Virus record (IMG/VR): IMGVR_UViG_3300042564_005465
Length of the DNA: 64,000 nucleotides
Reading direction: 5' to 3' (one strand)
DNA from: an uncultured virus (IMG/VR IMGVR_UViG_3300042564_005465)
Taxonomy: Duplodnaviria; Heunggongvirae; Uroviricota; Caudoviricetes
Part shown: one piece after another, positions 1,980 to 21,864 of the stretch
Layout of the letters: every line of letters starts with the position of its first letter
Position numbering within the stretch: the stretch's first letter is position 1
Notes under the pieces: model-generated
What the model was told of the DNA's origin: nothing
What the model saw: the letters and a program-made list of their open reading frames with translations, nothing else
Databases searched by the model: none
Position numbers and translations under genes: made by a program

Positions 1980-1999
1980 GCCCACAAAGCCTGCACAAT

Positions 2000-2212
2000 C
2001 AGGTCACAAGTGAAGGAAAAAACAAGACATTATCATTGACAGGATGGATAACATCCTCCAGGGCTAAACCCATTGCTCAGCACGTTTTCGGTATGCCTCA
2101 CGGGCTCCATTTGTTTTTTGTTGTGCTGCTATATTGGGATTGTGTTTTGCAGTTTGTTGGTTGTCGTTTGTTCTTTGTTAGAGTCTCTGTTTGATCTTGA
2201 GTTTGTGACCTG
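2000..2212 (+). ncRNA. Candidate structured RNA closed by a 10-bp helix, with a periodic TTG tract
   Basis: CAGGTCACAA (2000-2009) pairs with TTGTGACCTG (2203-2212); inner hairpin AGGATG/CATCCT; TTG every 7 nt from 2142 to 2177. Confidence 0.55.
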
Positions 2213-2236
2213 TTTCTTCTTTTGAAAGACATTCTT

Positions 2237-3061
2237 ATGAAATTTGCCCTTATCTCTGACATCCACATTGACCACAGTGGGTGGGATTGGCAACTTCTTG
2301 ACAAAGTTGACTCTGCTACTCCACTTGTGGTGTGTGGCGACATTGAAAATGATGTTCGCGCTGGAAGCCGGTGGCTGCGCGAAGCTGGGCAGCGATTTGA
2401 ACATGTGATTTGGGTGGCCGGCAACCATTGCATGTACAACCTAGGATTTCATTCCACTCGACTGAGTGACCCAGAGTTTGACGCTCAGTATCCCTATCCG
2501 CGCACTGTTGAGGAAATCTACGACCACTACAGCCGATATAGCAAGGCACATAATGTCTCCTTTCTGCATAGAGGCAGTGTTGTGGTCAACGGTGTGAAGT
2601 TTGTGGGTGCTACTGGTTGGCATGATTTCCAAGCTGGTAGCCCATTTGACTTTGAGCAGCAATCCTCAGCTTACCTACATTACATGAATGATGCTCGCTA
2701 TATCCAGTGGGGCACAGAATACAAGGTGCAAGCAATTGTAGACTCTGCAAAAGCGGATGCTGAGTATATCCAAAACGCTGTAACCAACTCAGCACACCAT
2801 GTGGTGGTAATGACGCATCATGCACCTAATCGAGTGCTGCTGAAGTATAATCCAAACCCCAGGTGGGTTATGCTAAATGGCAGTTATGCAAACACACTCT
2901 TGGAACCCATCACCAACTCAAACATTCGCGCTTGGTGCTTTGGTCACACACATGACCGTCAAGACCGAGTGCTAAATGGTGTTCGCTACATCAACAATGC
3001 TCGAGGCTATCCTGGTGAAAACCCTGGTTGGACTCCAGTGGAAATTGAAATTGATATTTGA
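2237..3061 (+). CDS. Calcineurin-like metallophosphoesterase
   Basis: SDIH, GD, GNH, THH and GHTH motifs. Confidence 0.9.
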   Translation: MKFALISDIHIDHSGWDWQLLDKVDSATPLVVCGDIENDVRAGSRWLREAGQRFEHVIWVAGNHCMYNLGFHSTRLSDPEFDAQYPYPRTVEEIYDHYSRYSKAHNVSFLHRGSVVVNGVKFVGATGWHDFQAGSPFDFEQQSSAYLHYMNDARYIQWGTEYKVQAIVDSAKADAEYIQNAVTNSAHHVVVMTHHAPNRVLLKYNPNPRWVMLNGSYANTLLEPITNSNIRAWCFGHTHDRQDRVLNGVRYINNARGYPGENPGWTPVEIEIDI

Positions 3062-3094
3062 CACAACACTATTTGTCATCTATCCTTAAAAGGA

Positions 3095-3301
3095 AGAATG
3101 CTTACAGCAAAGTTTATGCAATTGGAAAAGTGCAAAAACAGCATTCTGTTTACGGGCTTGAGGATTTGGTTCAGCAAACCTTTGGATAACGTTTTGTTTA
3201 TCAAAACCAGTGGTTCAATTCCACATCCAAATCCGTGCCCACCACAAAGGATCTCTTCCGCAAACTTAAAATCGCATCATGTGTGATACAAAGGAGATCC
3301 T
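3095..3301 (+). ncRNA. Array of three stem-loop RNAs with T[AT]C[AC]GCAA motif (Y-RNA-like candidate)
   Basis: 8-bp closing stems AGAATGCT/AGCATTCT, GGATTTGG/CCAAATCC, AGGATCTC/GAGATCCT; T-arm GTGG-TTCAATT-CCAC in unit 2; promoter at 3058. Confidence 0.65.
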
Positions 3302-3571
3302 GTGACTACTCAAATAAATGCACAATACATCAGCTATCAAACATATCGTTGGTTAAGCCCCTTGATCTACGAGATCATTGCAGAAGTCTCGGCTCAGAAC
3401 ATTGATATAGCTCAAGACGTAGTAAATGACAAGTTTGTAATCTTTTTTGAAGTAGAGAACACTAGATACACGCTGCCAATCTACAATAACCGACTGCAAG
3501 GCTTTCCTCTTGATTTGAAAGATGACAGTTTCCAAGAATTGATTGCTGAAATCAAGCTGCGACATTTTTGA
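3302..3571 (+). CDS. Hypothetical protein
   Basis: 89-aa ORF with AAGGAG RBS. Confidence 0.55.
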   Translation: MTTQINAQYISYQTYRWLSPLIYEIIAEVSAQNIDIAQDVVNDKFVIFFEVENTRYTLPIYNNRLQGFPLDLKDDSFQELIAEIKLRHF

Positions 3572-3596
3572 CACAACCCTGTTTACAGGGTATAGT
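3568..3596 (+). promoter_or_regulatory. Sigma70-type promoter with palindromic spacer
   Basis: TTGACA-N17-TATAGT containing ACCCTGT-TT-ACAGGGT. Confidence 0.65.
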
Positions 3597-3626
3597 TCAC
3601 TACACATATGCATGAGGAAATTTTGC

Positions 3627-5036
3627 ATGAGCTTTGCAGCAGCCGTTGATCTCACCCACTCAGAAACAGCCAATGGCATGCCCACCAATGCAACAACCAA
3701 CAATCCTGTATTGGATCTCTTTGCTGTCATCGGCAGCAGTCGAGGCAAAAATCTGTCTACTCAATTTTCTGCTGCATTCAGTTGTGATACACTGCTGACA
3801 GTGAAAACCCTGTTTTGGGCACGTGATGCACGCGGTGGTGCTGGTGAACGCGATATTTTCCGGAAATTGTTCAACCAACTGTGTGAGAAGGATCCAGAGC
3901 TGGCAATTCGCTTGCTCACATTGATCCCTGAGTTTGGTAGATATGACGACTTACTCAGTATTGCTCATCCACTAGTGCAACAGGTTGCACTAGCATATTA
4001 TGCTGATGAGCTGCACAAAGGCAAGGCACTAGCAGCCAAATATGCCCCGCGCCAAGGACAACTAGCCAATCGCTTGCGCAAACTCTTGGGAATCAAAACT
4101 CCCAAAGAATATCGCCAGTTAGTGGTTAACCAATGTCACACAGTGGAACAACAGATGTGTGCGCGACAATGGCACAACATTCACTATAGCCAATTGCCTT
4201 CTGTAGCCAGTGCTCGCTATCAAAAGGCTTTTTTGAAAAATGATCCAGCACGCTACAACCTTTGGAAAGAGGGTTTGAAAACTGGTGTTGCCCGTGTGAA
4301 CAGCTCCGTTCTCTTTCCCTACGATGTGTTGAAGAGCATGCGTAATGGCGATGCAGAAGTTGCGCAAGCTCAATGGGACAGCCTACCAAATCTGTTGGGT
4401 GAGGACAACATCCTTCCAATGGTTGACACCTCTGGTAGCATGAGTAGTGCTGTTGGCGGCAACTCCAAACTCTCCTGTATGGAGGTGGCCTTGAGTTTGG
4501 GGCTCTATGTAAGTGACAAACAACAGGGCGCTTTCAAAGACTTGCTGTTGACCTTTTCAGGTGATAGTCGAATTGAGCGACTGCAAGGCAGCTTGACGGA
4601 GAAGGTGCGCCAAATCAGCACACTGCATTGGGGCATGAACACCAGCATTGAACGAGCTTTCCGTGAGATCTTGCGTGTGGCTGTGATGGGTAATGTGCCC
4701 AACAGTGAAATGCCCAAGGTGGTGCTGGTGCTGAGTGATCAAGAGTTTGACTCCTCAAGCGATGGTAACAAAATGGCTTGGAACATAGCTCAAGAAACTT
4801 TCCAACGGCACAGCTACTCAACTCCAAAAATTGTTTGGTGGAACCTAAATGCTCGCGCAGGAAATTTTCCCGTAAGGGCACACAGCACAGGGGCTGCTTT
4901 GGTAAGTGGATTCTCTCCCAGCATCTTGAAAAGCATTTTGAAATGCGAGGAGTTTTCGCCGTTGACTGTGATGCTGGAAACGCTGAACAATCCACGCTAT
5001 GATAATGTAGCTGCGGCTGTAGGACACAACTCTTGA
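3627..5036 (+). CDS. DUF2828-type TROVE/Ro-like protein with C-terminal vWA domain
   Basis: RDARGGAGER, EFGRYDDL, AAKYAPR, MIDAS motif DTSGSM, LSDQEFD, WWNL, VSGFSP; start placed at MSFAAA after the promoter and GAGG. Confidence 0.85.
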   Translation: MSFAAAVDLTHSETANGMPTNATTNNPVLDLFAVIGSSRGKNLSTQFSAAFSCDTLLTVKTLFWARDARGGAGERDIFRKLFNQLCEKDPELAIRLLTLIPEFGRYDDLLSIAHPLVQQVALAYYADELHKGKALAAKYAPRQGQLANRLRKLLGIKTPKEYRQLVVNQCHTVEQQMCARQWHNIHYSQLPSVASARYQKAFLKNDPARYNLWKEGLKTGVARVNSSVLFPYDVLKSMRNGDAEVAQAQWDSLPNLLGEDNILPMVDTSGSMSSAVGGNSKLSCMEVALSLGLYVSDKQQGAFKDLLLTFSGDSRIERLQGSLTEKVRQISTLHWGMNTSIERAFREILRVAVMGNVPNSEMPKVVLVLSDQEFDSSSDGNKMAWNIAQETFQRHSYSTPKIVWWNLNARAGNFPVRAHSTGAALVSGFSPSILKSILKCEEFSPLTVMLETLNNPRYDNVAAAVGHNS

Positions 5037-5878
5037 GCACCTTGCCTTACAGCATTTATCAAGGTGATAATGTTGGCATGCTGAAACAGTATGTTCTTGA
5101 CTCCAGCATTGATCTCACTGTCACTAGTCCTCCTTACGACAGCCTCCGAGACTACAAAGGCCACACTTGGGATTTTGATGAGTTGTTGAAGGAACTCAAA
5201 AGAGTAACAAAGCCTGGTGGTATTGTCATGTGGAATGTGGCTGATCAAGTTGTGAATGGCAGTGAAACTGGCACAAGCTTTCGACAAGCTTTGAAATTCA
5301 TAGACAGTGGTTGGCGACTTCATGATACAATGGTTTACGAAAAAGCCAACTTCAGCAATCCCAGCAGCAACCGGTACCACCAATTGGCAGAGTGGATGTT
5401 TGTGTTCAGCCTTGGAAAACCCAAAACCTTCAATCCCATCAAAGACAAACCTACTACAGCATTGAATAATCCTGATCATGCACGCATGGCAACATTTGGT
5501 AAGAACACAGTGCGTAACAAGGATGGTCTCATGCAAGACAGGGGGTCGAGAAAGGACTACTCAGAGTTTGGTATGCGAGGCAATATTTGGCGCATGAAAA
5601 CAGCAGGGCAAGAACGGCCATGCAAGAGCATTTCTCATCCAGCCAAAATGCCCACAGCTATGGCCCATGATCATATCATCAGTTGGAGCAATCCAGGAGA
5701 TGTAATCTTGGACCCATTTGCAGGCAGTGGAACAACTGGTGTAGAGGCATTGAAACTGGGGCGACACTTTGTTGGAACTGAAATAGCCCAAGAATATTTT
5801 GAGATCATGCAGAACAACTTGAATGACTGGGTAAGTTTGAACAATATAATCAATCCTGTTGCATCCAAAGACGAATAA
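5033..5878 (+). CDS. DNA methyltransferase, beta class (N4-C/N6-A)
   Basis: TSPPY precedes HPA and DPFAGSGTT. Confidence 0.92.
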   Translation: MSTLPYSIYQGDNVGMLKQYVLDSSIDLTVTSPPYDSLRDYKGHTWDFDELLKELKRVTKPGGIVMWNVADQVVNGSETGTSFRQALKFIDSGWRLHDTMVYEKANFSNPSSNRYHQLAEWMFVFSLGKPKTFNPIKDKPTTALNNPDHARMATFGKNTVRNKDGLMQDRGSRKDYSEFGMRGNIWRMKTAGQERPCKSISHPAKMPTAMAHDHIISWSNPGDVILDPFAGSGTTGVEALKLGRHFVGTEIAQEYFEIMQNNLNDWVSLNNIINPVASKDE

Positions 5879-5892
5879 CAGTAAATATAACA

Positions 5893-5949
5893 TGGAGTTG
5901 ACTCAAAAGTAACTCCCTAAACATCTTGCTTTAAGAAGGAGATAACAAA
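5893..5949 (+). promoter_or_regulatory. ROSE-like RNA thermometer candidate in the dnaK leader
   Basis: Hairpin GGAGTT/AACTCC, then TCTTGCTT-TAAG-AAGGAGA sequestering the SD with a UUGCU motif. Confidence 0.45.
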
Positions 5950-7785
5950 ATGACTATCATTGCGATAGATCTTGGAACTACGAATTCATGCGTGGCCATT
6001 ATGGAAAATGGCACAGCTCGCGTAATTGAAAACGCAGAAGGTGCACGCACAACCCCCAGCATTGTGGCTTGGACTGACAAGGAACAACTGGTTGGACAAG
6101 CTGCCAAACGACAGGCTGTTACAAATCCCGAAAACACAGTTTTTGAAAGCAAGCGCCTGATTGGTCGGCGCTTTGCGGATCCATCAGTCGCAGCAGATAT
6201 GAAAACACTACCTTACAAAATTGTCAAGGCTGACAATGGCGATGCATGGGTAGAAACTCGAGGTCAGGCTCGCAGTCCAGCTGAGATTGGCGCTCAGGTG
6301 CTGTTGAAGATGAAAGAAACGGCAGAAACCTATCTGGGGAAAAAAGTCTCCCAAGCTGTTCTGACAGTACCTGCATATTTTGATGATGCACAACGACAGG
6401 CAACAAAAGATGCTGGCCGCATTGCTGGACTTGAAGTGATGCGTATCATAAATGAACCCACAGCAGCAGCTCTAGCTTTCAGCACTGACAAAGGTGGTGA
6501 TGGCAAGGTAATTGTTGTGGATTCAGGCGGTGGCACACATGACGTCAGTGTACTAGATATTGGTAGTGGTGTTGTAGAGGTGCTCAGCACCAATGGTGAT
6601 ACACATCTTGGTGGTGCGGATTTTGATGCCCGAGTAACAGACTATCTTGCTCAAGAGTTCTTGCGTGACCAAGGGCTAGATCTCCGGAAGGACAAAATGG
6701 CTGTGCAACGTTTGCGTGAAGCCGCAGAGCGTGCAAAGATTGAACTCAGCAGCACTAGTGAAACTGAAGTCAACTTGCCTTATATCACAGCTGACTCTTC
6801 TGGTCCCAAACATCTGTTGGTGAAGCTCTCTCGTGCAAAGTTCGAAGAGCTGACCTCTGATCTTGTGAAGCGCATCATAGCCCCGTGCCAGGCTGCACTT
6901 AAGGATGCATCAATCAACAAAAATGAGATAAAAGAGATTATCCTCGTTGGTGGCACCACACGTATTCCAGCAGTGCGCCAAGCCATCCGAGACTTCTTTG
7001 GCAAGGAGCCCAACCACTCTGTAAATCCAGATGAGGCTGTGGCCATTGGTGCGGCTGTGCAGGCTGGTGTCTTGCAAGGTGATGTGAAGGATGTGCTGCT
7101 GCTGGATGTGACTCCACTTAGCCTAGGCATTGAGACAATGGGAGGTGTGTTCACCAAACTCATCGAAAAGAACACCACGATCCCAACCAAAAAGGAACAA
7201 GTTTTCAGTACTGCTGAAGACAACCAGCAGGCAGTTACTATCAAAGTGTTCCAAGGTGAGAGAAGTATGGCGCGAGATAATAAATCGCTAGGTCAATTTG
7301 ACCTCAAAGACATTCCACCAGCACCGCGCGGCGGCCCCCAGATCGCCGTAGCATTTGATATTGATGCGAATGGCATTGTCACTGTCAGTGCACAAGACAA
7401 GGGCACTGGCAAAACTCAACAAATCTCAATCCAAGCCAATGGTGGACTGTCAGAGGCTGAGATTTTAGAAATGATCCGTCAAGCTGAAGAAAACGAAGCA
7501 GCAGACCAGGAGCGTCGGCGCGTTGCAGACGCACGCAACAATGCTGATGGCGTTATCGCTTCAGTAGAGCGGGTGCTTAAGGAAAATGTCGACAAAATCT
7601 CTGAAAGACTTCGTGCAGAAGCTGAACCCCAGTTAGCTACGTTGCGTCATGTATTAGACGGAGAGGATGTTGAAATCATTGAGAAAGAAACTACAAAACT
7701 TAGTGAAATCTCCATGAAGCTGGGTGAGGAAATCTACAAAAATACACAGGCTGAAACCTCAGCTGAACCCACCCAAAACTCTTGA
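5950..7785 (+). CDS. dnaK: Hsp70 chaperone DnaK
   Basis: [44 protein letters not shown]. Confidence 0.98.
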
Positions 7786-7792
7786 GCTCCAA

Positions 7793-7828
7793 AGAAGGCA
7801 GCATTGAAGACTGCTGCCTTCCTTCTTG
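7793..7828 (+). terminator. Hairpin, probable terminator after dnaK
   Basis: GAAGGCAGCA/TGCTGCCTTC stem followed by CTTCTT. Confidence 0.55.
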
Positions 7829-7860
7829 ACTGAACAATTGTTTCCGCATATGCTGCGCAC

Positions 7861-8079
7861 ATGAGCGATGAACCAGCATACTTCAAACGGCGTGTGAGCC
7901 GCACAAAATACTACTACAACCCAAATTTTGGCGACAGTCGAGTGTGTGCTGACCCAGAATGCCAGCACACCTATGCAAGACATTTTGACCCCTACGAGGA
8001 TTGGGCTGCTGCGGGCTGCAAATATTGCAGTTGCAGCAAATTCAAAACCTCACGCAAGCTTGTGTGTAATCCAGCTTGA
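7861..8079 (+). CDS. Small Cys/His-rich (zinc-binding) protein
   Basis: CADPECQH...H...CKYCSC. Confidence 0.55.
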   Translation: MSDEPAYFKRRVSRTKYYYNPNFGDSRVCADPECQHTYARHFDPYEDWAAAGCKYCSCSKFKTSRKLVCNPA

Positions 8080-8129
8080 CATGCACGCGCATGTGTGCTA
8101 TAGAGGCACACTGAATAAGGAGTATCCTA

Positions 8130-8630
8130 GTGCCTGAATTTTTGGTTTGCGCAAAGAGTCAAGTGCGTGCTCGTGTGAGAAGCATGGATGCAACACACCT
8201 AGTGACTCTTTTGGATCCTGGTGATGATGTCCACAAGCCCAACAGGATCAGTCCTGAAAATTGGATTTGGCTTCGTGTGGAAGATGAGGAAAATTCCACT
8301 TGTGCCAACGCACCTACTCTTGCTCATGCCCAGAGAGTCATTGATTTCGGTGCATCACTACCTTTTGATGCTCGTGTCGTAGTACACTGCTACGCCGGAG
8401 TAAGCAGAAGTACAGCCACTGGATTGGCACTCTGGCTCCAAAGCAACGGCACACACCGTCTTGAGGAGGCTGAAGCTTGGCTGTTGGCTCATCGTGAAAG
8501 GCCTTGCCCAAATATGCTGTTGGCTGAACATTTTGACCATCTGTTGGGGATGAATGGGGAGTTTGTGCGGCTGTGCGATCAGATTGGTGAAGGCAGTATG
8601 GCTCGTTGGTGGAAAACTCAAGAGCTATAA
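8130..8630 (+). CDS. Tyrosine/dual-specificity phosphatase-like protein
   Basis: VHCYAGVSRS (CX5R) and PN motif. Confidence 0.88.
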   Translation: MPEFLVCAKSQVRARVRSMDATHLVTLLDPGDDVHKPNRISPENWIWLRVEDEENSTCANAPTLAHAQRVIDFGASLPFDARVVVHCYAGVSRSTATGLALWLQSNGTHRLEEAEAWLLAHRERPCPNMLLAEHFDHLLGMNGEFVRLCDQIGEGSMARWWKTQEL

Positions 8631-8693
8631 ACTAACGGGTTTTGGTAAGCCCACAATATTTTAAATACCTTATGTTTTTGAGGTATTTGCCAA

Positions 8694-8810
8694 ATGGCTG
8701 CAACCATTAGAGCCTTCAGAAAAATTTGGGTCATGACATTTGTGGCACTGTCAAGTGCCACAGCCTTTTATTTGGCAGCAGCATTGGGCTGGGCAACTTT
8801 TTGGTGGTAG
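8694..8810 (+). CDS. 38-aa single-TM peptide
   Basis: MAATIRAFRKIWVMTFVALSSATAFYLAAALGWATFWW after TAAATA and GAGG. Confidence 0.45.
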   Translation: MAATIRAFRKIWVMTFVALSSATAFYLAAALGWATFWW

Positions 8811-8817
8811 GAACAAT

Positions 8818-9303
8818 TTGGCGACAGGCGATTTTATTAAACAACATTTGTCTAAATTTCAATTTGCGGCAGTGGCAATTACAATATTGCTGGGTGCACA
8901 CACAATTTACGACAGATTTTTCAAAACTGCTGAACCGGTGTTGATTTGGGATCCAGAAGGTTTCGGCATCACGCCCACAAACAGCTACAGCAGTTTTCAA
9001 GTGGCAGCCAGCCGGAAAAAATTCCGCGATGATTGTCCGTTGCGCAGCTTTGATGCACACATAATAGACCGAGATGGTTTTATTCATCAAATCACCACCA
9101 GCGCCAATCGAAGTGTTGGTAAGACTTCAACAGGTTTTGAAAATTTCCAGTTTCTCATCAAAATAAATGATCTTGAGTCTGTGCCAGGAGGCAAGGCTCG
9201 ATTGCGTGGAATTTTGGTATATGAATGCAAGGAAGGGCAACAAGTAATTGAATATCCTGAAACAGACCGATTAACTTTGGAGATTGTAAGTGGATCAAAA
9301 TAA
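8818..9303 (+). CDS. Membrane-anchored periplasmic protein
   Basis: N-terminal TM segment followed by a soluble domain with two Cys; TTG start inferred. Confidence 0.55.
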   Translation: MATGDFIKQHLSKFQFAAVAITILLGAHTIYDRFFKTAEPVLIWDPEGFGITPTNSYSSFQVAASRKKFRDDCPLRSFDAHIIDRDGFIHQITTSANRSVGKTSTGFENFQFLIKINDLESVPGGKARLRGILVYECKEGQQVIEYPETDRLTLEIVSGSK

Positions 9304-9559
9304 GAAAAGTCCAAACAACTGGAAAGACTATGCAGGCATAGCAGTATGCAGTGTCACAGTCTTGGCATTCATTGCCATTGGCTTCATCATCATGGCAGCC
9401 AAAACAGCTGGTGTAGACATGAGCCCTCCGGGTGATTGGATGGCTGCTATGCTGAGTTTGGCCAGCACTGCACTTGGTTGGCTAGCTGGTCAGAAGGGCA
9501 GCAAGGAATCTGAGTCAATACCCGCTCCTCCAGTTGAGAAAACTTTGCCCATCAGCTGA
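9290..9559 (+). CDS. Two-TM small protein (holin-like)
   Basis: Two hydrophobic helices and a charged C-terminus. Confidence 0.5.
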   Translation: MDQNKKSPNNWKDYAGIAVCSVTVLAFIAIGFIIMAAKTAGVDMSPPGDWMAAMLSLASTALGWLAGQKGSKESESIPAPPVEKTLPIS

Positions 9560-9655
9560 ATTTTGTCACACTAGTCCTTATAATGAAAATCCCAAAGGCT
9601 AACTGTCTATAACAAAAAATTGTAGAGTTTTTGGACACTTGGTGTTGACGCACTT

Positions 9656-10135
9656 GTGTCTGCTGTAGCAAACTAATGTCTACAGCAGACACGATATGGC
9701 GGTAATTGGCTCCGCTGGCGGAAGGGATGGTACTCCATCAGGAACGCAAACAAATCGGTAGACTCTGCCTGCCGGACCGAGAAGCACAGCTGGTTCCCTC
9801 ACAAAGAAGCTCTCCAGTTCGAACTCGGAATACACGGTCAAGTGGAACATAGACCCAAAATTATCTTCAACATGTGAGGCATGTTGCCAAAGGATCGCTC
9901 TGTTTTGTGCATGAACATCGATCACGGAATTGGTTTGTTTATGGTTTTCAAACCAATTTTTTCCGCTGCATCTACTTAGTAGAGAGACAGGTTGTGGACA
10001 GGAATGTCTGAGGGTACCGTGCAACCGCCCCAAGTGCTAACACACTCACAACAAAACCATCTGAGACTGGTGCCTATAGTAGTAGTCTTGTTTTTGTTTT
10101 CCCACATATTTGTTGGGAGAGCATGTTCTGAGTCC
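9656..10135 (+). ncRNA. Candidate large structured non-coding RNA or origin region
   Basis: No convincing ORF; many stems, e.g. GTGTCTGCTGTAG/CTACAGCAGACAC, CAACATG/CATGTTG, AATTGGTTTG/CAAACCAATT, GATGG/CCATC. Confidence 0.45.
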
Positions 10136-10163
10136 CAATACCTGCGTAGATATGAGTTAGTTT

Positions 10164-10511
10164 TTAAAAACTCTTTCCCCAATTGCGCATCAATATTCCA
10201 GCAACAGAATTGGCTTCGTTCTCAATAGCACTTCCTGTTTCACCATCCTGATTGGTTAACTCTTGTAGCTCACTTTGCTTCTGGTGAACCAGTTCATGTG
10301 CGATAGTCCGACAAATATCCAATAGGTGGCGACCGTCAACAGACACTGTAATCTTCCTGTTGATGGGATCATAACCACCAAAAGTGCTTTGTATGCCATG
10401 TTTCATACGACTGGATCGTAATCTTACTACCACTGGAGTTTGGATATCTAATTCTTTTTTGGCCCATTTGACAAAATTTGTGATTTCAGGAACTAGGGGA
10501 TGGCTTTTCAT
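10164..10511 (-). CDS. Zincin-like metallopeptidase (HExxH)
   Basis: RTIAHELVHQKQ...ENEAN; TAAATA 5 nt before the ATG. Confidence 0.75.
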   Translation of the reverse strand: MKSHPLVPEITNFVKWAKKELDIQTPVVVRLRSSRMKHGIQSTFGGYDPINRKITVSVDGRHLLDICRTIAHELVHQKQSELQELTNQDGETGSAIENEANSVAGILMRNWGKSF

Positions 10512-10579
10512 ACACATATTTAGGTTGACACTTTGGGGAAGGAATGCTACGTTCTCCACATAGAGAGAAGGTTAACAGC

Positions 10580-10999
10580 ATGTCAGGATTGCCGGCTGAT
10601 GGTGAACGGGTAAGGATTGAAAGTCGGGACCTTACCAAAGTTCAGGGTTGGCCTGCTAATCGAACCTCAATTTTTGAGGGCATTGTAGTTCCAACTTTTT
10701 CTTGGCTAGAGGGGCCACATATTTGTATCACAAGTAATGATATAAAAATCCCTGTGCGCAGTTTCAAAATGGAACACGTAGTCAAGATTGTTCGAGCTGA
10801 TGGCAGTGAAACCTTGCCGCCTTCTGTAGCTCCTGTGAAAAAGGAAAAAGACACCAGCTGGATGGTAACAGGCAGCAAAGGCGCATCGTATGTGGTGTCT
10901 AGGAGCGGCAGCCGTTGGCACTGCTCGTGTGTGGCGGGCGGTTTTGGCCGAGCCTGCAAACATGTTAAGGAAATTCAAGCCAAAATGGCCAATTCATGA
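10580..10999 (+). CDS. SWIM zinc-finger protein
   Basis: GSKGASYVV...WHCSC...CKHV. Confidence 0.8.
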   Translation: MSGLPADGERVRIESRDLTKVQGWPANRTSIFEGIVVPTFSWLEGPHICITSNDIKIPVRSFKMEHVVKIVRADGSETLPPSVAPVKKEKDTSWMVTGSKGASYVVSRSGSRWHCSCVAGGFGRACKHVKEIQAKMANS

Positions 11000-11009
11000 A
11001 AGGAAAAAC

Positions 11010-11201
11010 ATGTCAAAACTAGGAACAATGAAGAAGGTTGGTGAATCCTTCAACATCTATCGGTATGACAACGGATGGATGGTTGAAATCACCGGACGCG
11101 ACAAGGAAAGTGATTGGATTACATCGAAGATTGTCTGCAACAGCGAACAAGAAGTAGTAGCTTTGTTCACCCAATACAACACAATTGAAATTGATCGCTA
11201 A
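11010..11201 (+). CDS. Hypothetical phage protein
   Basis: AAGGA RBS; YRYDNGWMVEITG. Confidence 0.65.
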   Translation: MSKLGTMKKVGESFNIYRYDNGWMVEITGRDKESDWITSKIVCNSEQEVVALFTQYNTIEIDR

Positions 11202-11210
11202 TCATAGACA

Positions 11211-11237
11211 AAAAAGCCCGCTTAACGCGGGCTTTTT
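11211..11237. terminator. Bidirectional intrinsic terminator
   Basis: AAAAAGCCCGC-TTAAC-GCGGGCTTTTT between convergent genes. Confidence 0.85.
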
Positions 11238-11239
11238 GC

Positions 11240-11395
11240 TTATTTCTTTTGAGGCCAAATATCTTTGATATTGACCTTGCTCATTTCTGTTACCAAATTC
11301 ATATGAGCCTCATACATTTTTGCTGCTGTGTCCATATAAGTTGCGGCTACAGCAGCATACCAATTGGTAACGCTTCGTGCGATATCGTTGTTCAT
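11240..11395 (-). CDS. Small helical protein
   Basis: GGGAG RBS and TAAATA upstream. Confidence 0.5.
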   Translation of the reverse strand: MNNDIARSVTNWYAAVAATYMDTAAKMYEAHMNLVTEMSKVNIKDIWPQKK

Positions 11396-11458
11396 TGTTA
11401 TTCTCCCCTTTGTGTCTAGTCTATTTATGTTGCGGTGCAACATCATAGATGTCAACCT

Positions 11459-12049
11459 TCACCAGCGAGCATTTTTTTCAAATCCAGCATCTTCCAATTC
11501 TTTTTGGGCATCAAACATTGCACGTTTTCCTTGTCCTGCATATCTTCTTAAGATGTCTTTGACCTTCTCAGCTGCTCGATTTTCAATTGCATTGGTGTTA
11601 CCATATGCAATGCCTATTCGGCAGGCATTCAACAACCGAAGAACCGGAAGAGTAGAGCTCCAGGTGAAAATTACAGCTTCTACACTAGCAGGAAACCCCT
11701 CTAGACTTTGTAGTCTAGGCATTAAGCTTATGTTGAACACTCCACCAACAGTGTCTGGCGCACCCCTCAAATCAGATAGCTTGTTTCGGTCTACCAAACA
11801 GTCTCCTGTGACTTCACCAGGACAGCCATATAACGAACTCAAGTTGCTGTCTCGAACATTGAATGTACCCACAACCTTACCAAAGGCAAATGGCAAGCTG
11901 CCATTGGGAAATCTATATTGGCTTGGCCTTATATCAGAATACACATTCAGTCTGCCTTGACTATCAAAATCATATTTTTTGTCTTCAATTATTGAATAGG
12001 CAACAAAATAGGAATTCAACTCCTGTAAAATCTTCTCTTTGTCTACCAT
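11459..12049 (-). CDS. LRR-like family protein (last in array)
   Basis: Diverged 21-aa repeats; tail YAGQGKRAMFDAQKELEDAGFEKNARW. Confidence 0.88.
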   Translation of the reverse strand: MVDKEKILQELNSYFVAYSIIEDKKYDFDSQGRLNVYSDIRPSQYRFPNGSLPFAFGKVVGTFNVRDSNLSSLYGCPGEVTGDCLVDRNKLSDLRGAPDTVGGVFNISLMPRLQSLEGFPASVEAVIFTWSSTLPVLRLLNACRIGIAYGNTNAIENRAAEKVKDILRRYAGQGKRAMFDAQKELEDAGFEKNARW

Positions 12050-12597
12050 TTTGCGTTGCCTTCAAATCCTGCATCTTCCAAGTCTTTTTGACAATCAAAC
12101 ATTGCTCGTTTGCCTTGACCTGCATATTTGTTCATTATTGCCATGACCCTAGGTTGGCCATACAGCACTACCTCACGGGCGTTTAGAGTTCTCAGCAATG
12201 GCAGGGATGGCCCCCATTTCAAACTGACCCTTTTGCCTACCTTTTGTGGAAAGCCGTCAAGAGAAACAAGCGGGTTGCGGTTTACAAAAAAATTGCCACC
12301 CACCTCTAAGGGAGCACCAATCAGTGTGGTGAGCTTGTTACCAGCCAACTCACAGTCGCCAGTTACAAGTTGGGGCATGTTGTGTAAGGTTTTAAGGCCT
12401 TTTTCTTCAGCAACAAAATCCCCCGTCACTGTGCCGAACTTGACTGGTATCTCAGCCAGTTCATCAAGCATGTAAACATTCCACTGCACATCTACTGTGC
12501 CATCATCACGTATTTGCATTTGTTTGGATAGGCGATATTGATCACCAGGGTCAAAGTATTTGCACCACACTCTCAAGATCTCTTCTTTGTCTACCAT
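12043..12597 (-). CDS. LRR-like family protein
   Basis: Repeats; tail KYAGQGKRAMFDCQKDLEDAGFEGNAKW. Confidence 0.88.
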   Translation of the reverse strand: MVDKEEILRVWCKYFDPGDQYRLSKQMQIRDDGTVDVQWNVYMLDELAEIPVKFGTVTGDFVAEEKGLKTLHNMPQLVTGDCELAGNKLTTLIGAPLEVGGNFFVNRNPLVSLDGFPQKVGKRVSLKWGPSLPLLRTLNAREVVLYGQPRVMAIMNKYAGQGKRAMFDCQKDLEDAGFEGNAKW

Positions 12598-13184
12598 CGA
12601 GCATTCCCTTCAAATCCAGCATCTTCCAATTCTTTTTGACAATCAAACATGCCCTTTTTGCCAAATCTGCGATATTTTCTCAAAATACTCAACACTTGTT
12701 TGGGGTGGGAGTCAGCTGGATCGCGCATTTGAAACCATTCCAGCTCGATCCATTTGCATGTTAGGAGTCGCAACATAGGCATATTTGGATACCAAGATAC
12801 AACTACACTTTGGTCTGGAGGTAAACCTTCAAGACTCTTGAAGTTAATTCCAGAAATATTGAGTTGGCCAGAGATTTGTTGGGTCAATCCCACAAGATTG
12901 GTCAGTGGATTGTCATCAATGCTCATGCTACCGTGCACAACTTCTGGGCTGCCTTCTAGGCTTGTCAATCCACAGTTGTTCATACCCACATTACCATGGA
13001 TAGTCCCAAAATTCACTGGCCACATGCCGTCAGGCATGTGCAGGCCATTTCTTCTTATAACATTGCCAAGGATGTTAAGAGAACCGTTTTCTTTCAGAAA
13101 TCTGTATCTGCCTCTCTGGATGATGTCTTCAGAATTTTCAAAATAGTGTTCAAAAATACGTAATATAGATTCTTCATCTACCAT
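12591..13184 (-). CDS. LRR-like family protein
   Basis: Repeats; tail GKKGMFDCQKELEDAGFEGNARW. Confidence 0.88.
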   Translation of the reverse strand: MVDEESILRIFEHYFENSEDIIQRGRYRFLKENGSLNILGNVIRRNGLHMPDGMWPVNFGTIHGNVGMNNCGLTSLEGSPEVVHGSMSIDDNPLTNLVGLTQQISGQLNISGINFKSLEGLPPDQSVVVSWYPNMPMLRLLTCKWIELEWFQMRDPADSHPKQVLSILRKYRRFGKKGMFDCQKELEDAGFEGNARW

Positions 13185-13936
13185 TTTGCGTTTCCTTCAT
13201 AGCCAGAGTCTTCCAGTTCTTTTTGGCAATCAAACAAAGCCCGTTTGCCTTGCCCTGCGTATTTCATAAGGATGTTTTTCACAGCTCTAGCATCTTGATT
13301 CAAAGTAGGATACAATCCTATGTCATCTGCAACCAATGTTCGTAATAACGGGAGATTTTTGTGATACGGGCCCCAAAAACCCGCCATTTCTCGTGGCGCA
13401 CCATCAAGGCTTGTTAATGGGGTATCTATGCAAGTGAAATAGCCTGAGACTTTGGTGGGAGCACCTTTGAGATTGGTGAGATTATTGATGTCACAGCGAA
13501 AATCACCATTGACACTATCAGGCCCACCTTCAAGAGAAGACAGTTGATTCTTATAGCAAAAAAAACTGCCGGGAGAGATGTTTGGTACCCCCTTCAAGCT
13601 ATTCAGCTTGTTATGATTGACCGAAGTTACCCCGCCCACTGTTTTTGGAAAACCTTCAAGTGTCTCAAGTTCATTCTCACGAGCATCAAAATCACCCATA
13701 ACTTCGAAAGGACTGCCCAACAGACTAGTTAAGTTGTTTTTTGAGCAGAGGAAATCTCCTGTAACCAATTTGAAACGGCAAGGCAAAATTGTTGCAGAGA
13801 GCCGGAGACTCACGTTGCCATATGCTGATACTAGGCCTGCATCATCCACCTCTATTTTTCCTGAATGACTTGTCCCGGCATGAAAATCAAAGTTATAGTG
13901 AAATATTTTCAGGACACTTTCCCGTAGACTTACCAT
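13178..13936 (-). CDS. LRR-like family protein (more repeats)
   Basis: About six 21-aa repeats and the conserved tail. Confidence 0.88.
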   Translation of the reverse strand: MVSLRESVLKIFHYNFDFHAGTSHSGKIEVDDAGLVSAYGNVSLRLSATILPCRFKLVTGDFLCSKNNLTSLLGSPFEVMGDFDARENELETLEGFPKTVGGVTSVNHNKLNSLKGVPNISPGSFFCYKNQLSSLEGGPDSVNGDFRCDINNLTNLKGAPTKVSGYFTCIDTPLTSLDGAPREMAGFWGPYHKNLPLLRTLVADDIGLYPTLNQDARAVKNILMKYAGQGKRALFDCQKELEDSGYEGNAKW

Positions 13937-14505
13937 CTGGCATTGCCTTCATACCCTGCATCTTCCAGTTCTTTTTGGCAATCAAACAAAGCCCTTTTGC
14001 CTTGCCCTTCGTATTTTTTCATAATAGCAACAGGGGGTTTATGGTCTAAGCTCAAATTGGCAAACACAATTTGTGGTGCCACCAAGGCCCTCAACAAAGG
14101 CAACTGGGGATGGTAGGGAAGGTATAAGGTGTTTCCAATTTCAGAGGCAAGGCCGTCAAGGTTCTCCAACGGATTATTGCTAGCCTCGTAGGTCCCTCCT
14201 ACTTTTTTTGGCCCACCAAGCAAGGTGGTCAATTTGTTGCCGCTGCAATAGAAATTTTGTCTAACCGTCAGTGGGCAACCTTCTAGAGAGGTTAAATTGC
14301 GGTTTTGTATTTGCATACTGAAATTCGCTGCTTCAAATTCCACCGGCAATTTTCCATCAGGCGGACTACGCCACAAGAAAACATTGTTCAAAACAGTGAT
14401 TTTGCCAGTGGTGGGATTGATATTGAGACTGCCTTTTGAGGTTACAAAGCCTGGACCATCAAAATACGTTCTGTAACTTTTCTCAATTTCTTTCACATTT
14501 ACCAT
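13930..14505 (-). CDS. LRR-like family protein (first in array)
   Basis: Start reassigned to MVNVKE by analogy with the family's Met-Val starts; conserved tail. Confidence 0.85.
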   Translation of the reverse strand: MVNVKEIEKSYRTYFDGPGFVTSKGSLNINPTTGKITVLNNVFLWRSPPDGKLPVEFEAANFSMQIQNRNLTSLEGCPLTVRQNFYCSGNKLTTLLGGPKKVGGTYEASNNPLENLDGLASEIGNTLYLPYHPQLPLLRALVAPQIVFANLSLDHKPPVAIMKKYEGQGKRALFDCQKELEDAGYEGNARW

Positions 14506-14564
14506 CTTGCATTCCTTCAAACTTATCAAGTTCCAGTTTTTTGACCATCAAATAAGACACGTTT
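14499..14564 (-). pseudogene. Frameshifted relic of the LRR-family C-terminal tail
   Basis: Minus strand reads KRVLFDGQK/LELDKFEG/NARW* with two small indels, ending in ATGGTAA. Confidence 0.75.
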
Positions 14565-14653
14565 TCATAGGCTTGCGTCATACAGATCTTCCAATGAGGT
14601 GCAATATTTAGGTTTGGGTTGACACATTTCAAGAACCTTGTAAGCTGCGCAGT

Positions 14654-17949: not shown

Positions 17950-18381
17950 ATGACTTTTGACAACGGTCAAATGACTTTGATACATCTTGTAAGCTTTCCG
18001 TCCTTGTGGTTACCACCTCCCAAGACTATAAAAGCATTGATAGTTGGCCTCGAGCAACAAGCTATGGAAGAGCTTGTTGCTCATTGCCAAAATGATTTTG
18101 CTGATTACAGTTTTGCCTTTTACTATTTGTCCAGCATGGACTTAAGTCAAACAGATATGATTGACTGGCTTATTATCAATCAAAACCATATGGATGGTTC
18201 CTTCATACAAGTAAGCGACTGGTCAACACTGTCCTTGGCGTTATCAGGCAAAGGTTTGGTCAGAATTGGCCAAGAACAAGCAAGTGCAGAAATACAAAAA
18301 TTGGCAGAATATGCAGGCCAAAAATGTGCATCCTTAAACACATTTATCCTTGAATTAACAACATATAGTAGGAAGGTATGA
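17950..18381 (+). CDS. Hypothetical protein
   Basis: 143-aa ORF coupled to clpX (ATGA overlap). Confidence 0.55.
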   Translation: MTFDNGQMTLIHLVSFPSLWLPPPKTIKALIVGLEQQAMEELVAHCQNDFADYSFAFYYLSSMDLSQTDMIDWLIINQNHMDGSFIQVSDWSTLSLALSGKGLVRIGQEQASAEIQKLAEYAGQKCASLNTFILELTTYSRKV

Positions 18382-19628
18382 CCACAAACATCAAAGCTCT
18401 ACATTATTGTAGTTTTTGTGGAAAAAACCAAACTCAAGTAAAAACACTCATTGCAGGTAGTAATACATTTATTTGCAGTGAATGTATTACCTTGTGTATG
18501 GAAATTATCAAACCACAAGACGAACAAAATGTACACATCATTCCCAAAGAATTAACGCCTCCCAAAATTGTTGAGTATTTGGATCAACATGTGATTGGGC
18601 AAAAAAATGCCAAAAAGTCATTGGCTGTGGCAATTTACAACCACTTGAAGCGTGTCAACAATCCAGTTGTGGATGGTGTCAGTATTGACAAAAGCAACAT
18701 TATGATGATTGGCAACAGTGGTGTTGGCAAAACTCATATGGTCAAAACCCTAGCCAAAATCCTGGAAGTGCCATTTGCTGTGGTTGATGCCACCAGCCTA
18801 AGCCAAACAGGATATGTGGGATTAGACCCAGAGGAGTGCCTTGCACGTCTATACCAGGCTGCTGAGAACAATATGGAATTGGCAGAAAAAGGCATTGTTT
18901 TCATTGATGAAATTGACAAGATAGGGCGCAAAGGAGAGAACGTAAGCACTACTAGAGATGTCAGTGGCGAAGGTGTCCAACAAGCTCTTTTGAAAATTAT
19001 TGAAGGCAGCGATGTGAAATTCAGTCCCATGGGCGGCCGCAAGAACCCCAACGGTGAGTTTGTTACTATGAACACACAGAATGTGTTGTTTATCGTTGGT
19101 GGTGCATTTGAAGGACTTGACAAAATCATTGAGGCACGTTTGGATGAAAAAACCAGTGGTATTGGATTTTTAAGTGCTACTAAAGAACAGCACAGCCCAG
19201 ATAAGACCCAGCGTTTGATGAGTCAAGTAACAACGGAAGATCTCATATCATTTGGTATGATTCCTGAACTTTGTGGGCGCATACCTGTTATCTTGAGTTT
19301 TGACGATCTTGATCATGATACATTGAAAAAGATTTTAGTGGAACCAAAAAACAGCATTGTTAAACAATTTCAAAAACTGTTCCAACTAGATGGCATCAGT
19401 TTGGAATTTGAAGATGATGCAGTGGATGAAGTTGCCAAGCAGGTGCTGACCAAAAAAACTGGCGCCCGAGGGTTGCGTGCTGTAATTGAACGGGTGTTGA
19501 TGGAAAGCCAATTTCAAATCACCTCCTTGCGCGATCAAGGAGTCACTGACTTAACAGTCACGCTGGATAATGTTCAAAACCTCACTCCCTTGAAACAAGT
19601 GTTGACTGATGAACACTCCCAGCTATAA
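18378..19628 (+). CDS. clpX: ATP-dependent Clp protease ATP-binding subunit
   Basis: CSFCGK zinc finger, GVGKT, IDEIDK, RDVSGEGVQQALLK, IGF loop, GARGLR. Confidence 0.97.
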   Translation: MTTNIKALHYCSFCGKNQTQVKTLIAGSNTFICSECITLCMEIIKPQDEQNVHIIPKELTPPKIVEYLDQHVIGQKNAKKSLAVAIYNHLKRVNNPVVDGVSIDKSNIMMIGNSGVGKTHMVKTLAKILEVPFAVVDATSLSQTGYVGLDPEECLARLYQAAENNMELAEKGIVFIDEIDKIGRKGENVSTTRDVSGEGVQQALLKIIEGSDVKFSPMGGRKNPNGEFVTMNTQNVLFIVGGAFEGLDKIIEARLDEKTSGIGFLSATKEQHSPDKTQRLMSQVTTEDLISFGMIPELCGRIPVILSFDDLDHDTLKKILVEPKNSIVKQFQKLFQLDGISLEFEDDAVDEVAKQVLTKKTGARGLRAVIERVLMESQFQITSLRDQGVTDLTVTLDNVQNLTPLKQVLTDEHSQL

Positions 19629-20223
19629 TCAGCGAGTAAACAGAAAGGACCGAGACAACTCTATGAAAGAACCTGCCATGCTGGCCAACGACCGCATCCG
19701 TGCGCCTGAGGTAAGGCTGATCGACGCTGAAGGAACAAATGTTGGTGTTGTGAAAACCAAAGATGCGTTGTTTCAAGCACAGCGAGCTGGACTTGATCTG
19801 GTGGTAATCAATCAACAATCTACACCAATGGTGGTGAAGATTTTGGACCTAAACAAGCATCTCTATGCACTGAAACTTGCTGCCAAAGAGCGTGCTAAAA
19901 AGAGTCGCGAAAGCGAGGTTCAAATGAAAGAAATTCAACTTCGCCCTGTGACTGATAGTCACGATATCAATGTCAAAGCCACTAAGGCACGTGATTTTCT
20001 AGCAGACAATTGCCGAGTCAAAGTTGTTATCAAGTTCCGTGGCAGAGAAATGAGTTTCACAAAACTGGGGTTTGGGGTAATTGATCAGTTTGTAAGCCTT
20101 GTGGGCAATTTCAAATATGAAAAAGAACCCAGCATGCAAGGTAATAGCATTACTGCTATCTTGGTTGCCAACAAACAGATACCAGCATCAACACCAGCAC
20201 CAAAAGACGCAACAACCCCTTAA
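19609..20223 (+). CDS. infC: Translation initiation factor IF-3
   Basis: NDRIRAPEVRLID...GLDLV...KEIQLRP...KVVIKFRGRE; start could be 19663. Confidence 0.95.
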   Translation: MNTPSYNQRVNRKDRDNSMKEPAMLANDRIRAPEVRLIDAEGTNVGVVKTKDALFQAQRAGLDLVVINQQSTPMVVKILDLNKHLYALKLAAKERAKKSRESEVQMKEIQLRPVTDSHDINVKATKARDFLADNCRVKVVIKFRGREMSFTKLGFGVIDQFVSLVGNFKYEKEPSMQGNSITAILVANKQIPASTPAPKDATTP

Positions 20224-21393: not shown

Positions 21394-21864
21394 ATGCGTA
21401 ATACTCTTTCTCTTCAATCAACAAGTTTTGAAGACATGATTCGCGATTTCAATCGCATTGCAGTGGGGTTTGAGCCCACACTGCGCAATCTCAATTCACT
21501 ACGCCAAAACAGTGCAACTACTTTTCCTCCGTATGACTTGGAAAAGATTGGTGAGCATGAATATCGACTCAGCATGGCTGTTGCTGGTTACAGTGCCGCC
21601 GACATTGACATTGTTGAGCACGACGGTGTGCTGACAGTTGAAGGCAAAGTGTCAAATGACGCCAACCGGGTGTATCTACACAAGGGGATTGCAGGACGCA
21701 GCTTCAAGCGTGTGTTTTACATGGACCAGTATGTTCGTGTGCAACATTCTACACTTGAGAATGGAATCCTTGTGATTGACTTTGTTCAAGATGTGCCAGA
21801 GGCACTCAAGCCCAAAAAGATTACAATCAATTCAACACAGCCCAAGGCTATTGAATCAGAATAA
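21394..21864 (+). CDS. Small heat-shock protein Hsp20 (IbpA-like)
   Basis: FPPYD...AVAG...YLHKGIAGRSF...NGIL...PE..KPKKI. Confidence 0.95.
   Translation: MRNTLSLQSTSFEDMIRDFNRIAVGFEPTLRNLNSLRQNSATTFPPYDLEKIGEHEYRLSMAVAGYSAADIDIVEHDGVLTVEGKVSNDANRVYLHKGIAGRSFKRVFYMDQYVRVQHSTLENGILVIDFVQDVPEALKPKKITINSTQPKAIESE

Follow-up and report, generated by a model that had tools for sequence, protein, structure and literature searches.

Arrays of leucine-rich repeat (LRR) genes linked by a conserved stop/start overlap are carried by an uncultured tailed virus (Caudoviricetes), known from the IMG/VR record IMGVR_UViG_3300042564_005465 (G000, 71,398 nucleotides (nt)). The record has a G+C content of 46.6% and a CheckV completeness estimate of 17%; its first 64,000 nt are hereafter called the window. 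The genes share a C-terminal tail of 27 residues, and the last codons of the tail overlap the start of the next gene. The whole is best explained, at a probability that we put near 0.6, by a virus-restricted family of LRR binders in which the tail would act as a start signal, as an anchor for recombination and as part of the protein fold.

A whole-record search placed the family at three sites of G000, namely arrays B and A in the window and a right-hand array beyond it. The 16 copies (7 in the window, 9 beyond) total 10,172 nt, or 14% of the record. All seven window open reading frames (ORFs) singled out by a preliminary description of this DNA were confirmed in position and strand, and all end in YxGQGKRA[LM]FD[CA]QK[ED]LEDxG[FY]ExNA[RK]W, the common tail that it had pointed out; the nine additional copies lie at 65410-71398. 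The 14 full-length proteins (184-307 residues) consist of an N-terminal cap helix, LRR units and a C-terminal module ending in the tail, and align over their whole length with a mean column identity of 34%. Across these copies, M1-V2 is invariant and the N-terminal ~50 residues show moderate conservation; the LRR block is of variable length, and the near-invariant end reads Y-x-G-Q-G-K-R-A-[LM]-F-D-C-Q-K-[ED]-L-E-D-A-G-F-E-G-N-A-[RK]-W (27 residues). The alignment, with divergent bodies on a constant tail, agrees with the cassette-like arrays proposed earlier. Overall, the preliminary interpretation is partly supported, a "docking" role of the tail being the exception and its anti-defence or receptor library a candidate role. 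The family features of the record are listed here.

Array B, 1-471 (cut by the record end) and 465-1136, + strand: two family genes.
1-471, + strand: family gene of array B, 5' end cut by the record end; four 21-residue LRR units, then the tail.
465-471, + strand: stop/start overlap ATGGTAA, 7 nt.
465-1136, + strand: family gene, 223 residues, final gene of array B; ends AAA TGG TAA and retains GAAGGA and ATGGTAA, followed only by a 12-codon frame.
Array A, 11459-14505, - strand: five family genes.
11459-12049, - strand: family gene, 196 residues, final gene of array A; tail FDAQK...FEKNARW; ends CGC TGG TGA, with neither a Shine-Dalgarno (SD)-like motif nor an ATG; body replaced in the related record G001.
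12043-12597, - strand: family gene, 184 residues; junction ATGGTAG at 12043-12049.
12591-13184, - strand: family gene, 197 residues; junction ATGGTAG at 12591-12597.
13178-13936, - strand: family gene, 252 residues; junction ATGGTAG at 13178-13184.
13930-14505, - strand: family gene that opens array A, 191 residues counted from the ATG at 14505; junction ATGGTAA at 13930-13936.
14499-14565, - strand: frame-broken tail relic (KRVLFDGQK...NARW*); provides GAAGG and ATGGTAA to the first gene.
Right-hand array, 65410-71398, outside the window, - strand: nine family genes, the last cut by the record end; overlap at all eight internal joints.

The stop/start junction and the array ends

All 13 gene-to-gene joints in G000 have the form xxA TGG TAR, and the downstream gene starts at that A (ATG GTA R..), which gives an overlap of 7 nt. 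The preliminary description had claimed an identical overlap at 465, 12043, 12591, 13178, 13930 and 14499, and ATGGTAA or ATGGTAG is indeed present at each position. It had also counted 14499 as a junction between genes; the ATGGTAA is there, but the upstream partner is the frame-broken relic at 14499-14565. When aligned to the tail of the 68570 gene, the relic scored 56, compared with 18.8 +/- 2.7 (maximum 31) for shuffles, and the first gene of array A takes its GAAGG and ATGGTAA start signals from it. The array of G003, another related record, likewise starts downstream of a 47-residue tail remnant. A promoter-like site at 14632-14603 was weak and not above chance.

To describe the joints across the family, 3' ends of family genes were gathered from G000, four related virus records (G001-G004) and 23 metagenome loci. 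After removal of exact duplicates only, 97 distinct ends were left, many of them still related. An end with another family gene next to it in overlapping frame was counted as an internal joint (n = 78). A start codon was kept at all 78 (ATG 71, GTG 6, TTG 1), and the stops were TAG at 52, TAA at 23 and TGA at 3. In G000, codons 2-3 before the Arg/Lys codon are GAA GGN, GAG GAG, GGG GGA or GCG GAG, which places an SD-like purine run 8-9 nt upstream of the ATG; an SD-like motif was present at 66 of the 78 internal joints. Among crude calls of non-family genes, 39 of 84 had an SD-like 4-mer at -18 to -5, compared with 12% of random positions, so the phage does make use of them.

The codon preceding Trp at internal joints was AGA (54), CGA (10), AAA (7), AGG (3), AAG (3) or CAT (1). 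The Arg codon thus ended in A in 64 of 67 cases, against 32.6% of the Arg codons in 43 other genes of the record, among which AGA accounts for 11.5%; the binomial p is about 1e-27, a figure that is indicative only, as the rows are related. The start codon kept at 78 of 78 internal joints and this excess over a background of ~33% go well past what chance would give. The Arg codon that precedes Trp is thus under selection at its synonymous third position, in line with a start signal. The counts for the start codon, the A-ending Arg and the SD-like motif together bear out the earlier claim that the tail DNA carries start and SD signals. Translationally coupled genes are marked by a start codon that overlaps the stop of the gene before it and by an SD-like motif inside that gene, an arrangement that the arrays share.

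The same signature was seen family-wide in public homologues: 239 of 245 end in W, 169 of 245 open with MVD, MVN, MVT or MVS, and 7 of 245 open with VV, matching the GTG form. In G001 (12155-12835 and 11457-12161), two joints have overlap starts other than ATG, namely GTG (AGG TGG TAG) and TTG (CAT TGG TAA). Since these joints use GTG and TTG, the overlap tolerates all three bacterial start codons.

These features suggest the following mechanism. Each array would be one messenger RNA (mRNA), on which the Glu-Gly or Glu-Glu codons of the tail provide GAAGG or GAGGAG 8-9 nt upstream of the next start. The start codon would be formed by the third base of the Arg/Lys codon and the TG of the Trp codon, and Val by the last G of Trp and the first two bases of the stop. 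Because the last codons of the tail double as start signals of the next gene, a ribosome terminating at the W-stop would be positioned for restart, and we infer that it restarts at the overlapping AUG, aided by the SD-like motif of the tail (translational coupling). A body inserted between two tails would then be expressed without signals of its own. Fusion of neighbours through a frameshift at the joint was ruled out on inspection, as no slippery heptamer precedes the stop.

The remaining 19 of the 97 ends comprise 5 that run off the contig while reading MVDK... and 14 array ends, which have ATG (7), TTG (2) or CTG (5) at the overlap position. No internal joint (0 of 78) has CTG, whereas 5 of 14 array ends do (Fisher p 4e-5); after near-identical loci were collapsed, it was found at 3 of 9 array ends (p 8e-4). 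The end of array A (11459) lacks both signals (GAA AAA AAT GCT CGC TGG TGA), and at the end of the right-hand array (65410; GAC AAG AAC GCC CGT TGG TAA) the ATG is gone and TTG remains. The preliminary description had held that the last gene has no ATG and that the chain stops there. This is true of gene 11459, but the 7 array ends that keep ATG reduce it to a tendency; within G000, ATG is also lost at 65410 but kept, as ATGGTAA, in 465-1136.

Exchange of gene bodies between strains

Over 10.5 kb, G001 (49,073 nt) is 98.95% identical to positions 1059-11556 of G000, and both ends of this block lie inside tails (genes 11459 and 465-1136). In array A, the two records are 97-100% identical along the whole of the 12043 gene and as far as ATGGTAGACAAA in the last gene, with 99-100% inside gene 11459 itself. 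The body of gene 11459 is only ~45-50% identical, and from TATGCAGGACAAGG (tail Y-A-G-Q-G) onward the identity is 100% again, including the rare FDAQK, EKN and CGC TGG TGA variants. In array B, identity is ~45-60% until GGACAAGGCAAACG in the tail of the last gene and 99% after it; in G001 this array has four genes, two of which have the GTG and TTG overlap starts.

G002 (328,603 nt) ends in an array whose first gene has ~560 nt in common, at 99-100% identity, with the first array B gene of G001. Around this shared body, the upstream DNA is ~70% identical and the tail 85%. The 3' switch is at the tail start, and the 5' switch is ~30 nt into the gene, in sequence not repeated elsewhere. Among all ends of high-scoring segment pairs of at least 300 nt and at least 96% identity between sources, those between G000 and G001 lie at -75, -95 and +7/+16 nt from a family stop. 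Three breakpoints between the two strains fall where the tail begins or shortly after the start codon.

Arrays thus differ from strain to strain between conserved flanks, and alignment of these assemblies shows different bodies between near-identical flanks, with the switch at the tail. This agrees with the claim of shuffling at the tail DNA: G001 bodies differ between ~99% flanks with breakpoints at the tail start in both arrays, and the body shared by G001 and G002 likewise ends where the tail begins. In 120 pairs of tail regions from different copies in the record, the longest exact stretch in common never exceeded 56 nt, the median being 15 nt. We propose that the tail DNA together with the first codons (ATG GTA GAC AAA), the sole stretch common to all copies, would be the homology for exchange, and that bodies would be exchanged between copies and between co-infecting phages, presumably by homologous recombination.

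No Pfam match to an integrase or invertase, as used by the cassette systems of integrons and shufflons, or to a reverse transcriptase was found among the 73 window proteins (E<=1e-5), although many of these have no family at all and the absence is unproven. A diversity-generating retroelement was considered and rejected, given that no reverse transcriptase was found and that there are many paralogues, not one template/variable pair.

The arrays also break assemblies, and they gave rise to a false "inverted terminal repeat" call. The record ends (1-916 and 70483-71398) are family genes in opposite orientation, identical over 127 nt and then ~89% identical over ~900 nt. The label of inverted terminal repeats, as a true genome terminus, was rejected because the ends are opposed family genes and G001 does not stop at array B. 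Beyond it, G001 has a further 35 kb that is absent from G000, and part of this is 97% identical to the G002 end; the arrays are therefore internal to a larger genome. Six contig ends lie within arrays among G000-G004, and CheckV estimated the completeness of G002 at 77%.

The protein, its variable face and its range

The LRR unit has 21 residues, x-F-x-C-x-x-N-x-L-T-x-L-x-G-x-P-x-x-V-x-G, and is present in 2 to 11 copies per protein. LRR proteins are built from tandem units of 20-30 residues with an LxxLxLxxN core, which is found here as F/L-x-C-x-x-N-x-L-T-x-L. AlphaFold2 predicted the 11459 protein (14-row alignment) as a single domain with an N-terminal helix and short solenoid strands (predicted local distance difference test (pLDDT) 95.5, predicted template-modelling score 0.90); the model shows the curved solenoid with terminal caps that is typical of the class. 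In an exhaustive structure alignment against 48,161 chains, the best match was IpaH1880 (Z 8.4, root mean square deviation 3.4 over 132 residues, 18% identity), followed by LANP (Z 8.4), a Leptospira LRR protein (8.3) and YopM (7.6), Z values that the tool calls middling. Rows 1-5 of the VIA search (Z 8.2-8.4) and most rows below are, judging by their titles, LRR domains.

Foldseek found nothing in the PDB at E<=1e-3, and none of the 7 window proteins exceeded a Pfam gathering score, the best being LRRNT at 18.4 bits against a cut-off of 25.8. No C-terminal Pfam domain, including the NEL ligase, was detected; only a helical module follows the last LRR. The PHROGs matches were weak families of unknown function, the best being phrog_21719 (2e-8), which matched the LRR part. 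Hydropathy showed neither a transmembrane nor a signal-like hydrophobic stretch (maximum KD19 1.49), nor a hydrophobic N-terminus (KD10 in the first 30 residues <=1.64). The family proteins are small and soluble, and would be cytoplasmic.

Five recent copies are 85-92% identical in DNA, and their 30 repeat units read G-G-x-F-x-C-x-x-N-Q-L-T-T-L-E-G-A-P-T-S-V. At positions 3, 5, 7 and 8 of GGxFxCxxN, on the concave-face strand, the proportion of nonsynonymous differences (pN) was 0.444 and that of synonymous differences (pS) 0.173 (30 units, 5 copies), whereas the other 17 repeat positions gave pN 0.094 and pS 0.133; the pairs are non-independent and the figures carry no formal test. Such a pattern is expected of a ligand-binding face under diversifying selection, and it is in line with the variable binders of the preliminary description.

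Gly, Ala and Leu of the tail are encoded by 3-4 different synonymous codons across the 16 copies. Because the tail codons vary freely at synonymous sites, tail conservation reflects a constraint on the protein and not homogenisation of the DNA. AlphaFold2 placed the tail within the globular fold, as a C-terminal helix and a terminal segment (pLDDT 94-98). In the 11459 model, helices span residues 154-170 and 175-187, the latter carrying K-R-A-M-F-D-x-Q-K-E-L-E-D, and a well-ordered terminal segment follows. The last 75 residues folded alone reached pLDDT 91.7. The tail is thus predicted to be the end of a C-terminal capping module and not a floppy appendage. The "docking" tail of the preliminary description finds no support here, as the tail lies inside the predicted fold. 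The C-terminal 75 residues matched no solved chain at Z>=5 (best 3.1), and in the ESM Atlas the tail part matched only unnamed clusters of Uroviricota hypothetical proteins at template-modelling scores >0.55. Many invariant tail residues are charged or polar (K, D, Q, K, E, D) and exposed, more than caps usually need. This invariant charged surface suggests one shared further interaction, and is the sole hint of a common partner.

Of 8,000 candidates scored with a whole-protein profile, 291 matched at E<=1e-3. The 120 matches listed are unnamed or "hypothetical", on contigs of up to 343 kb, and 4 of them carry a precomputed PF12799. When 1.84 billion representatives were searched with a tail-only profile, 761 reached E<=1e-3 and 182 reached E<=1e-10. 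Save for three long repeat proteins (1378-2149 residues), the proteins matched have <=290 residues and align at their extreme C-terminus. These three eukaryote-like proteins (P0131, P0202, P0244), which the profile matches in 9-14 stretches, were treated as unrelated, since Pfam gave only summed sub-threshold noise. In P0131, the match comes from a repeated I-L-x-x-Y-A-G-K-E-x-x-L-x-x-x-L, in which Pfam names no repeat and whose resemblance to I-L-x-K-Y-A-G-Q-G-K of the tail is perhaps due to chance.

In 185,579 species genomes of bacteria and archaea, 242 stretches came up as candidates, and none of them encodes a relative. BFVD holds 4 unnamed viral entries at E<=1e-3, and the cluster names of 10 homologues were all "hypothetical" except for one stray "VapD" label. 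We found no paper in the literature that describes the phage family or its junction. Judged by these searches, this appears to be a virus-restricted, undescribed multigene family that is widespread, with hundreds of clusters. The array A region was present in 24 runs labelled lake water metagenome, with no RNA run among those listed, and the carrier is a huge freshwater phage with a genome of roughly 400 kb. Most likely, given the sequence features above, the arrays serve as a repertoire of intracellular binders, which would diversify against polymorphic proteins of the host or of competitors.

The neighbouring genes are typical of a large tailed phage by Pfam: DnaE, dUTPase, dCMP deaminase, a QueD-like enzyme, a DNA methylase and a tail-fibre-like protein. 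Proteostasis and translation genes are also present, with DnaK, ClpX, IF3, Hsp20 and ClpS in the window and ClpP outside it, adjoining the right-hand array. A 511-residue protein with an Mtd_N domain and a pectate-lyase-like beta-helix (27894-29429, - strand) is probably a tail fibre or depolymerase. Cargo unusual in phage includes an OMP_b-brl outer-membrane beta-barrel protein, a zeta-toxin-like kinase and a cREC_REC receiver domain (43509-44000, - strand; 33457-34062, - strand; 35588-35923, + strand). An intergenic stretch of ~250 nt at about 9682-9929 has 73-76% DNA identity to two places each in G002 and G003, and the rest of 1137-11458 had no match in these two records. This stretch had no Rfam match and no tRNA, and its RNA folding was unremarkable (z -1.27 and -0.46). 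Further features are listed here.

11211-11237, no strand assigned: terminator-like G+C-rich hairpin with T runs on both sides; closes the array A operon and a convergent + strand gene.
11240-11395, - strand: small ORF of 51 residues that follows array A; has an SD-like motif of its own (GGGGAG) and is 98.6% identical in strain G001.
5950-7785, 18378-19628, 19609-20223, 21394-21864 and 24274-24600: the phage proteostasis and translation set DnaK/ClpX/IF3/Hsp20/ClpS, coordinates given as a group.
18378-19628: ClpX; 24274-24600: ClpS; 64523-65083 (record): ClpP.

Known systems, rival readings and significance

The nearest described system that we found is a tandem LRR surface-protein locus of Flavobacterium psychrophilum, which has up to 19 genes with 2-14 LRRs each (Altae-Tran et al. 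2020, PMC10392669). The likeness lies in hypervariable LRR positions on one face, constant termini, conserved flanking genes, and strain-variable gene number and content with signs of recombination. The bacterial locus differs in being cellular, in encoding secreted proteins that carry a signal peptide and a C-terminal signal for type 9 secretion, and in having intergenic DNA full of gene fragments, with junctions of 1-5 base pairs of microhomology (PMC10392669). By comparison, the phage arrays have no signal peptide, no Pfam C-terminal domain, 7-nt overlaps and exchange at the conserved tail.

Among phages, the hypothetical protein WXB48033.1 of the cultured Vibrio phage VB_VaC_SRILMA and unannotated ORFs of the uncultured huge phages LR756501-3 share the unit N-N-L-T-S-L-E-G-A-P-x-S-V-x-G-x-F-x-C-x-x, with 45% identity over the LRR part. 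The Vibrio phage gene differs in being single copy with an unrelated C-terminus, and has neither the tail nor the overlap junction. The LRRs of the IpaH/SspH/YopM effectors are the best structural matches and have a similar repeat length (20-22 residues), but the phage family has neither the NEL ligase domain of IpaH/SspH nor a secretion signal. Stop/start overlaps of the ATGA and TAATG types, as in trpB-trpA, couple translation in operons. The phage junction resembles these 1- and 4-nt overlaps in phase and in having an SD-like motif inside the upstream gene, and differs in its length of 7 nt, fixed by R/K-W-stop to M-V and repeated through arrays and hundreds of clusters. Expanded ankyrin, FNIP and LRR families are known in large DNA viruses such as giant viruses and poxviruses, and the variable lymphocyte receptors of lampreys are built from cassettes. 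The phage arrays share with these systems fast-diversifying repeat binders, arrays near ends or breaking assemblies, and recombination between conserved segments. Those systems are, however, eukaryotic and separately expressed, whereas the phage genes form a polycistronic bacterial-type chain with shared start signals. Overlap coupling and viral expansion of repeat proteins were already known; the triple use of one coding segment in the phage family is unusual.

Several observations weigh against the explanation that we prefer. The relatives are all metagenome assemblies, and the breakpoints lie exactly where an assembler could mis-join; this worry is countered because the shared tail stretches are short (median 15 nt) and one 5' breakpoint is in unique sequence. 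The evidence for exchange comes from three contigs and about five breakpoints. Logan contig pieces with 0-2 differing letters cover all five array A bodies in four lake-water runs (run X24 covers 13178-13936 only in part, and Logan contigs, which break at each tail, hold neither linkage nor minor variants), so array A appears stable in these runs, with no sign of rapid switching. Four records (L031-L034) share the same 9-gene array with the same ORF spacing and identical tail scores. Because of the stability of array A and the likeness of these four arrays, exchange looks like an evolutionary process between strains rather than a fast switch. The SD-like motif, at 9 of 14 array ends and 66 of 78 internal joints, does not differ significantly (p 0.13), and half of the array ends retain ATG. 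Judging by the models, the tail may be merely a structural cap. The dependence among the pN/pS pairs, given above, belongs here as well.

The simplest rival is ordinary tandem duplication, which by itself yields a shared junction; the tail and overlap would be inherited and kept as a protein cap, and the body swaps would be mis-assemblies. A tail lying inside the AlphaFold2 fold at pLDDT 94-98 fits this explanation, as do array A, which appears unchanged in four runs, and the Logan contigs, which break at every tail and thereby point to exact repeats of at least 31 nt there. We nevertheless consider it unlikely. A protein need cannot account for an Arg third base that is A in 64 of 67 cases against 33% and is relaxed at array ends; exact tail-tail stretches are short (median 15 nt, maximum 56 nt), the 5' breakpoint of G001/G002 is in unique sequence, and the swapped genes retain the flank-specific FDAQK, EKN and CGC TGG TGA. 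Alternatively, family members could bind each other through the tail or the N-terminal cap, with coupled adjacency aiding co-translational assembly of mixed oligomers. Many exposed charged tail residues are invariant, and complex prediction for the 12043 and 11459 proteins gave weak support, with a score of 0.49 (runs 0.49, 0.42 and 0.62) against 0.03 for the best of 3 controls; the runs agree in at least 89% of contacts, with partner pLDDT of at least 89. In calibration, 116 of 157 solved complexes and 2 of 215 mismatched pairs attained the mark, and passes at <=0.60 comprised 18 of the 157 solved complexes and both of the passing mismatches. By this calibration, so low a passing score is wrong more often than it is right, unless the guess was already a likely one. 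Moreover, the chains are paralogues with the same alignment rows, in which within-chain signal can pose as between-chain signal, no interface was reported, and the Vibrio phage relative is single-copy. Mixed oligomers are, in our view, improbable.

A place on the virion would make the proteins adhesins or alternative receptor-binding proteins, with the tail anchoring the LRR on the particle or directing its packaging. The architecture recalls that of the F. psychrophilum surface proteins (variable LRR number, constant C-terminus, strain-variable tandem arrays; PMC10392669), and the variable face is under diversifying pressure. The proteins have, however, no signal peptide and no Pfam or PHROG structural annotation, the single beta-strand Cys of each repeat suits a reducing cytoplasm, and the arrays do not adjoin the recognisable tail-fibre gene (27894-29429); a virion role would be doubtful on these grounds. 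The family could also supply substrate adaptors for phage Clp, the variable face catching host proteins and the tail docking on ClpX, ClpP or ClpS, much as the C-terminal peptide of SspB docks on ClpX. A constant tail on variable binders suits adaptor design, ClpX, ClpS, ClpP, DnaK and Hsp20 are in the same 71-kb record, and ClpP adjoins the right-hand array. Against this, the tail is folded into the domain and is not a free peptide, and G003 (11 copies, 76% complete) has no ClpP or ClpX match, although its missing part could hold them. Among G000-G004, ClpP and ClpX were matched only in G000, but all five records are fragments, and the count weighs neither way. We regard Clp adaptors as very unlikely. 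A broader version, in which the arrays would be a self-expressing plug-in library, is also quite unlikely. In it, LRR bodies would enter the chain by recombination at the tail and be translated from the signals of the preceding tail, and the invariant tail would hand the binders to one phage machine (for instance ClpXP/ClpS or a mixed LRR oligomer), giving the phage a heritable and exchangeable repertoire with which to neutralise or degrade polymorphic host defence proteins.

Under the reading that we prefer, a virus-restricted LRR binder family with a multipurpose tail, one coding segment would have a triple use: it would cap the protein, give the next gene its ribosome-binding site and start codon, and supply the homology for body exchange. 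Two ideas are thereby made testable, namely that translational coupling renders cassettes portable and that phages keep diversifying binder repertoires as their hosts do. Huge phages carry many unexplained genes, and here ~14% of a 71-kb stretch belongs to one family unnamed in databases. Should host defence proteins prove to be the targets, the family would offer many natural inhibitors that share a small and stable LRR scaffold.

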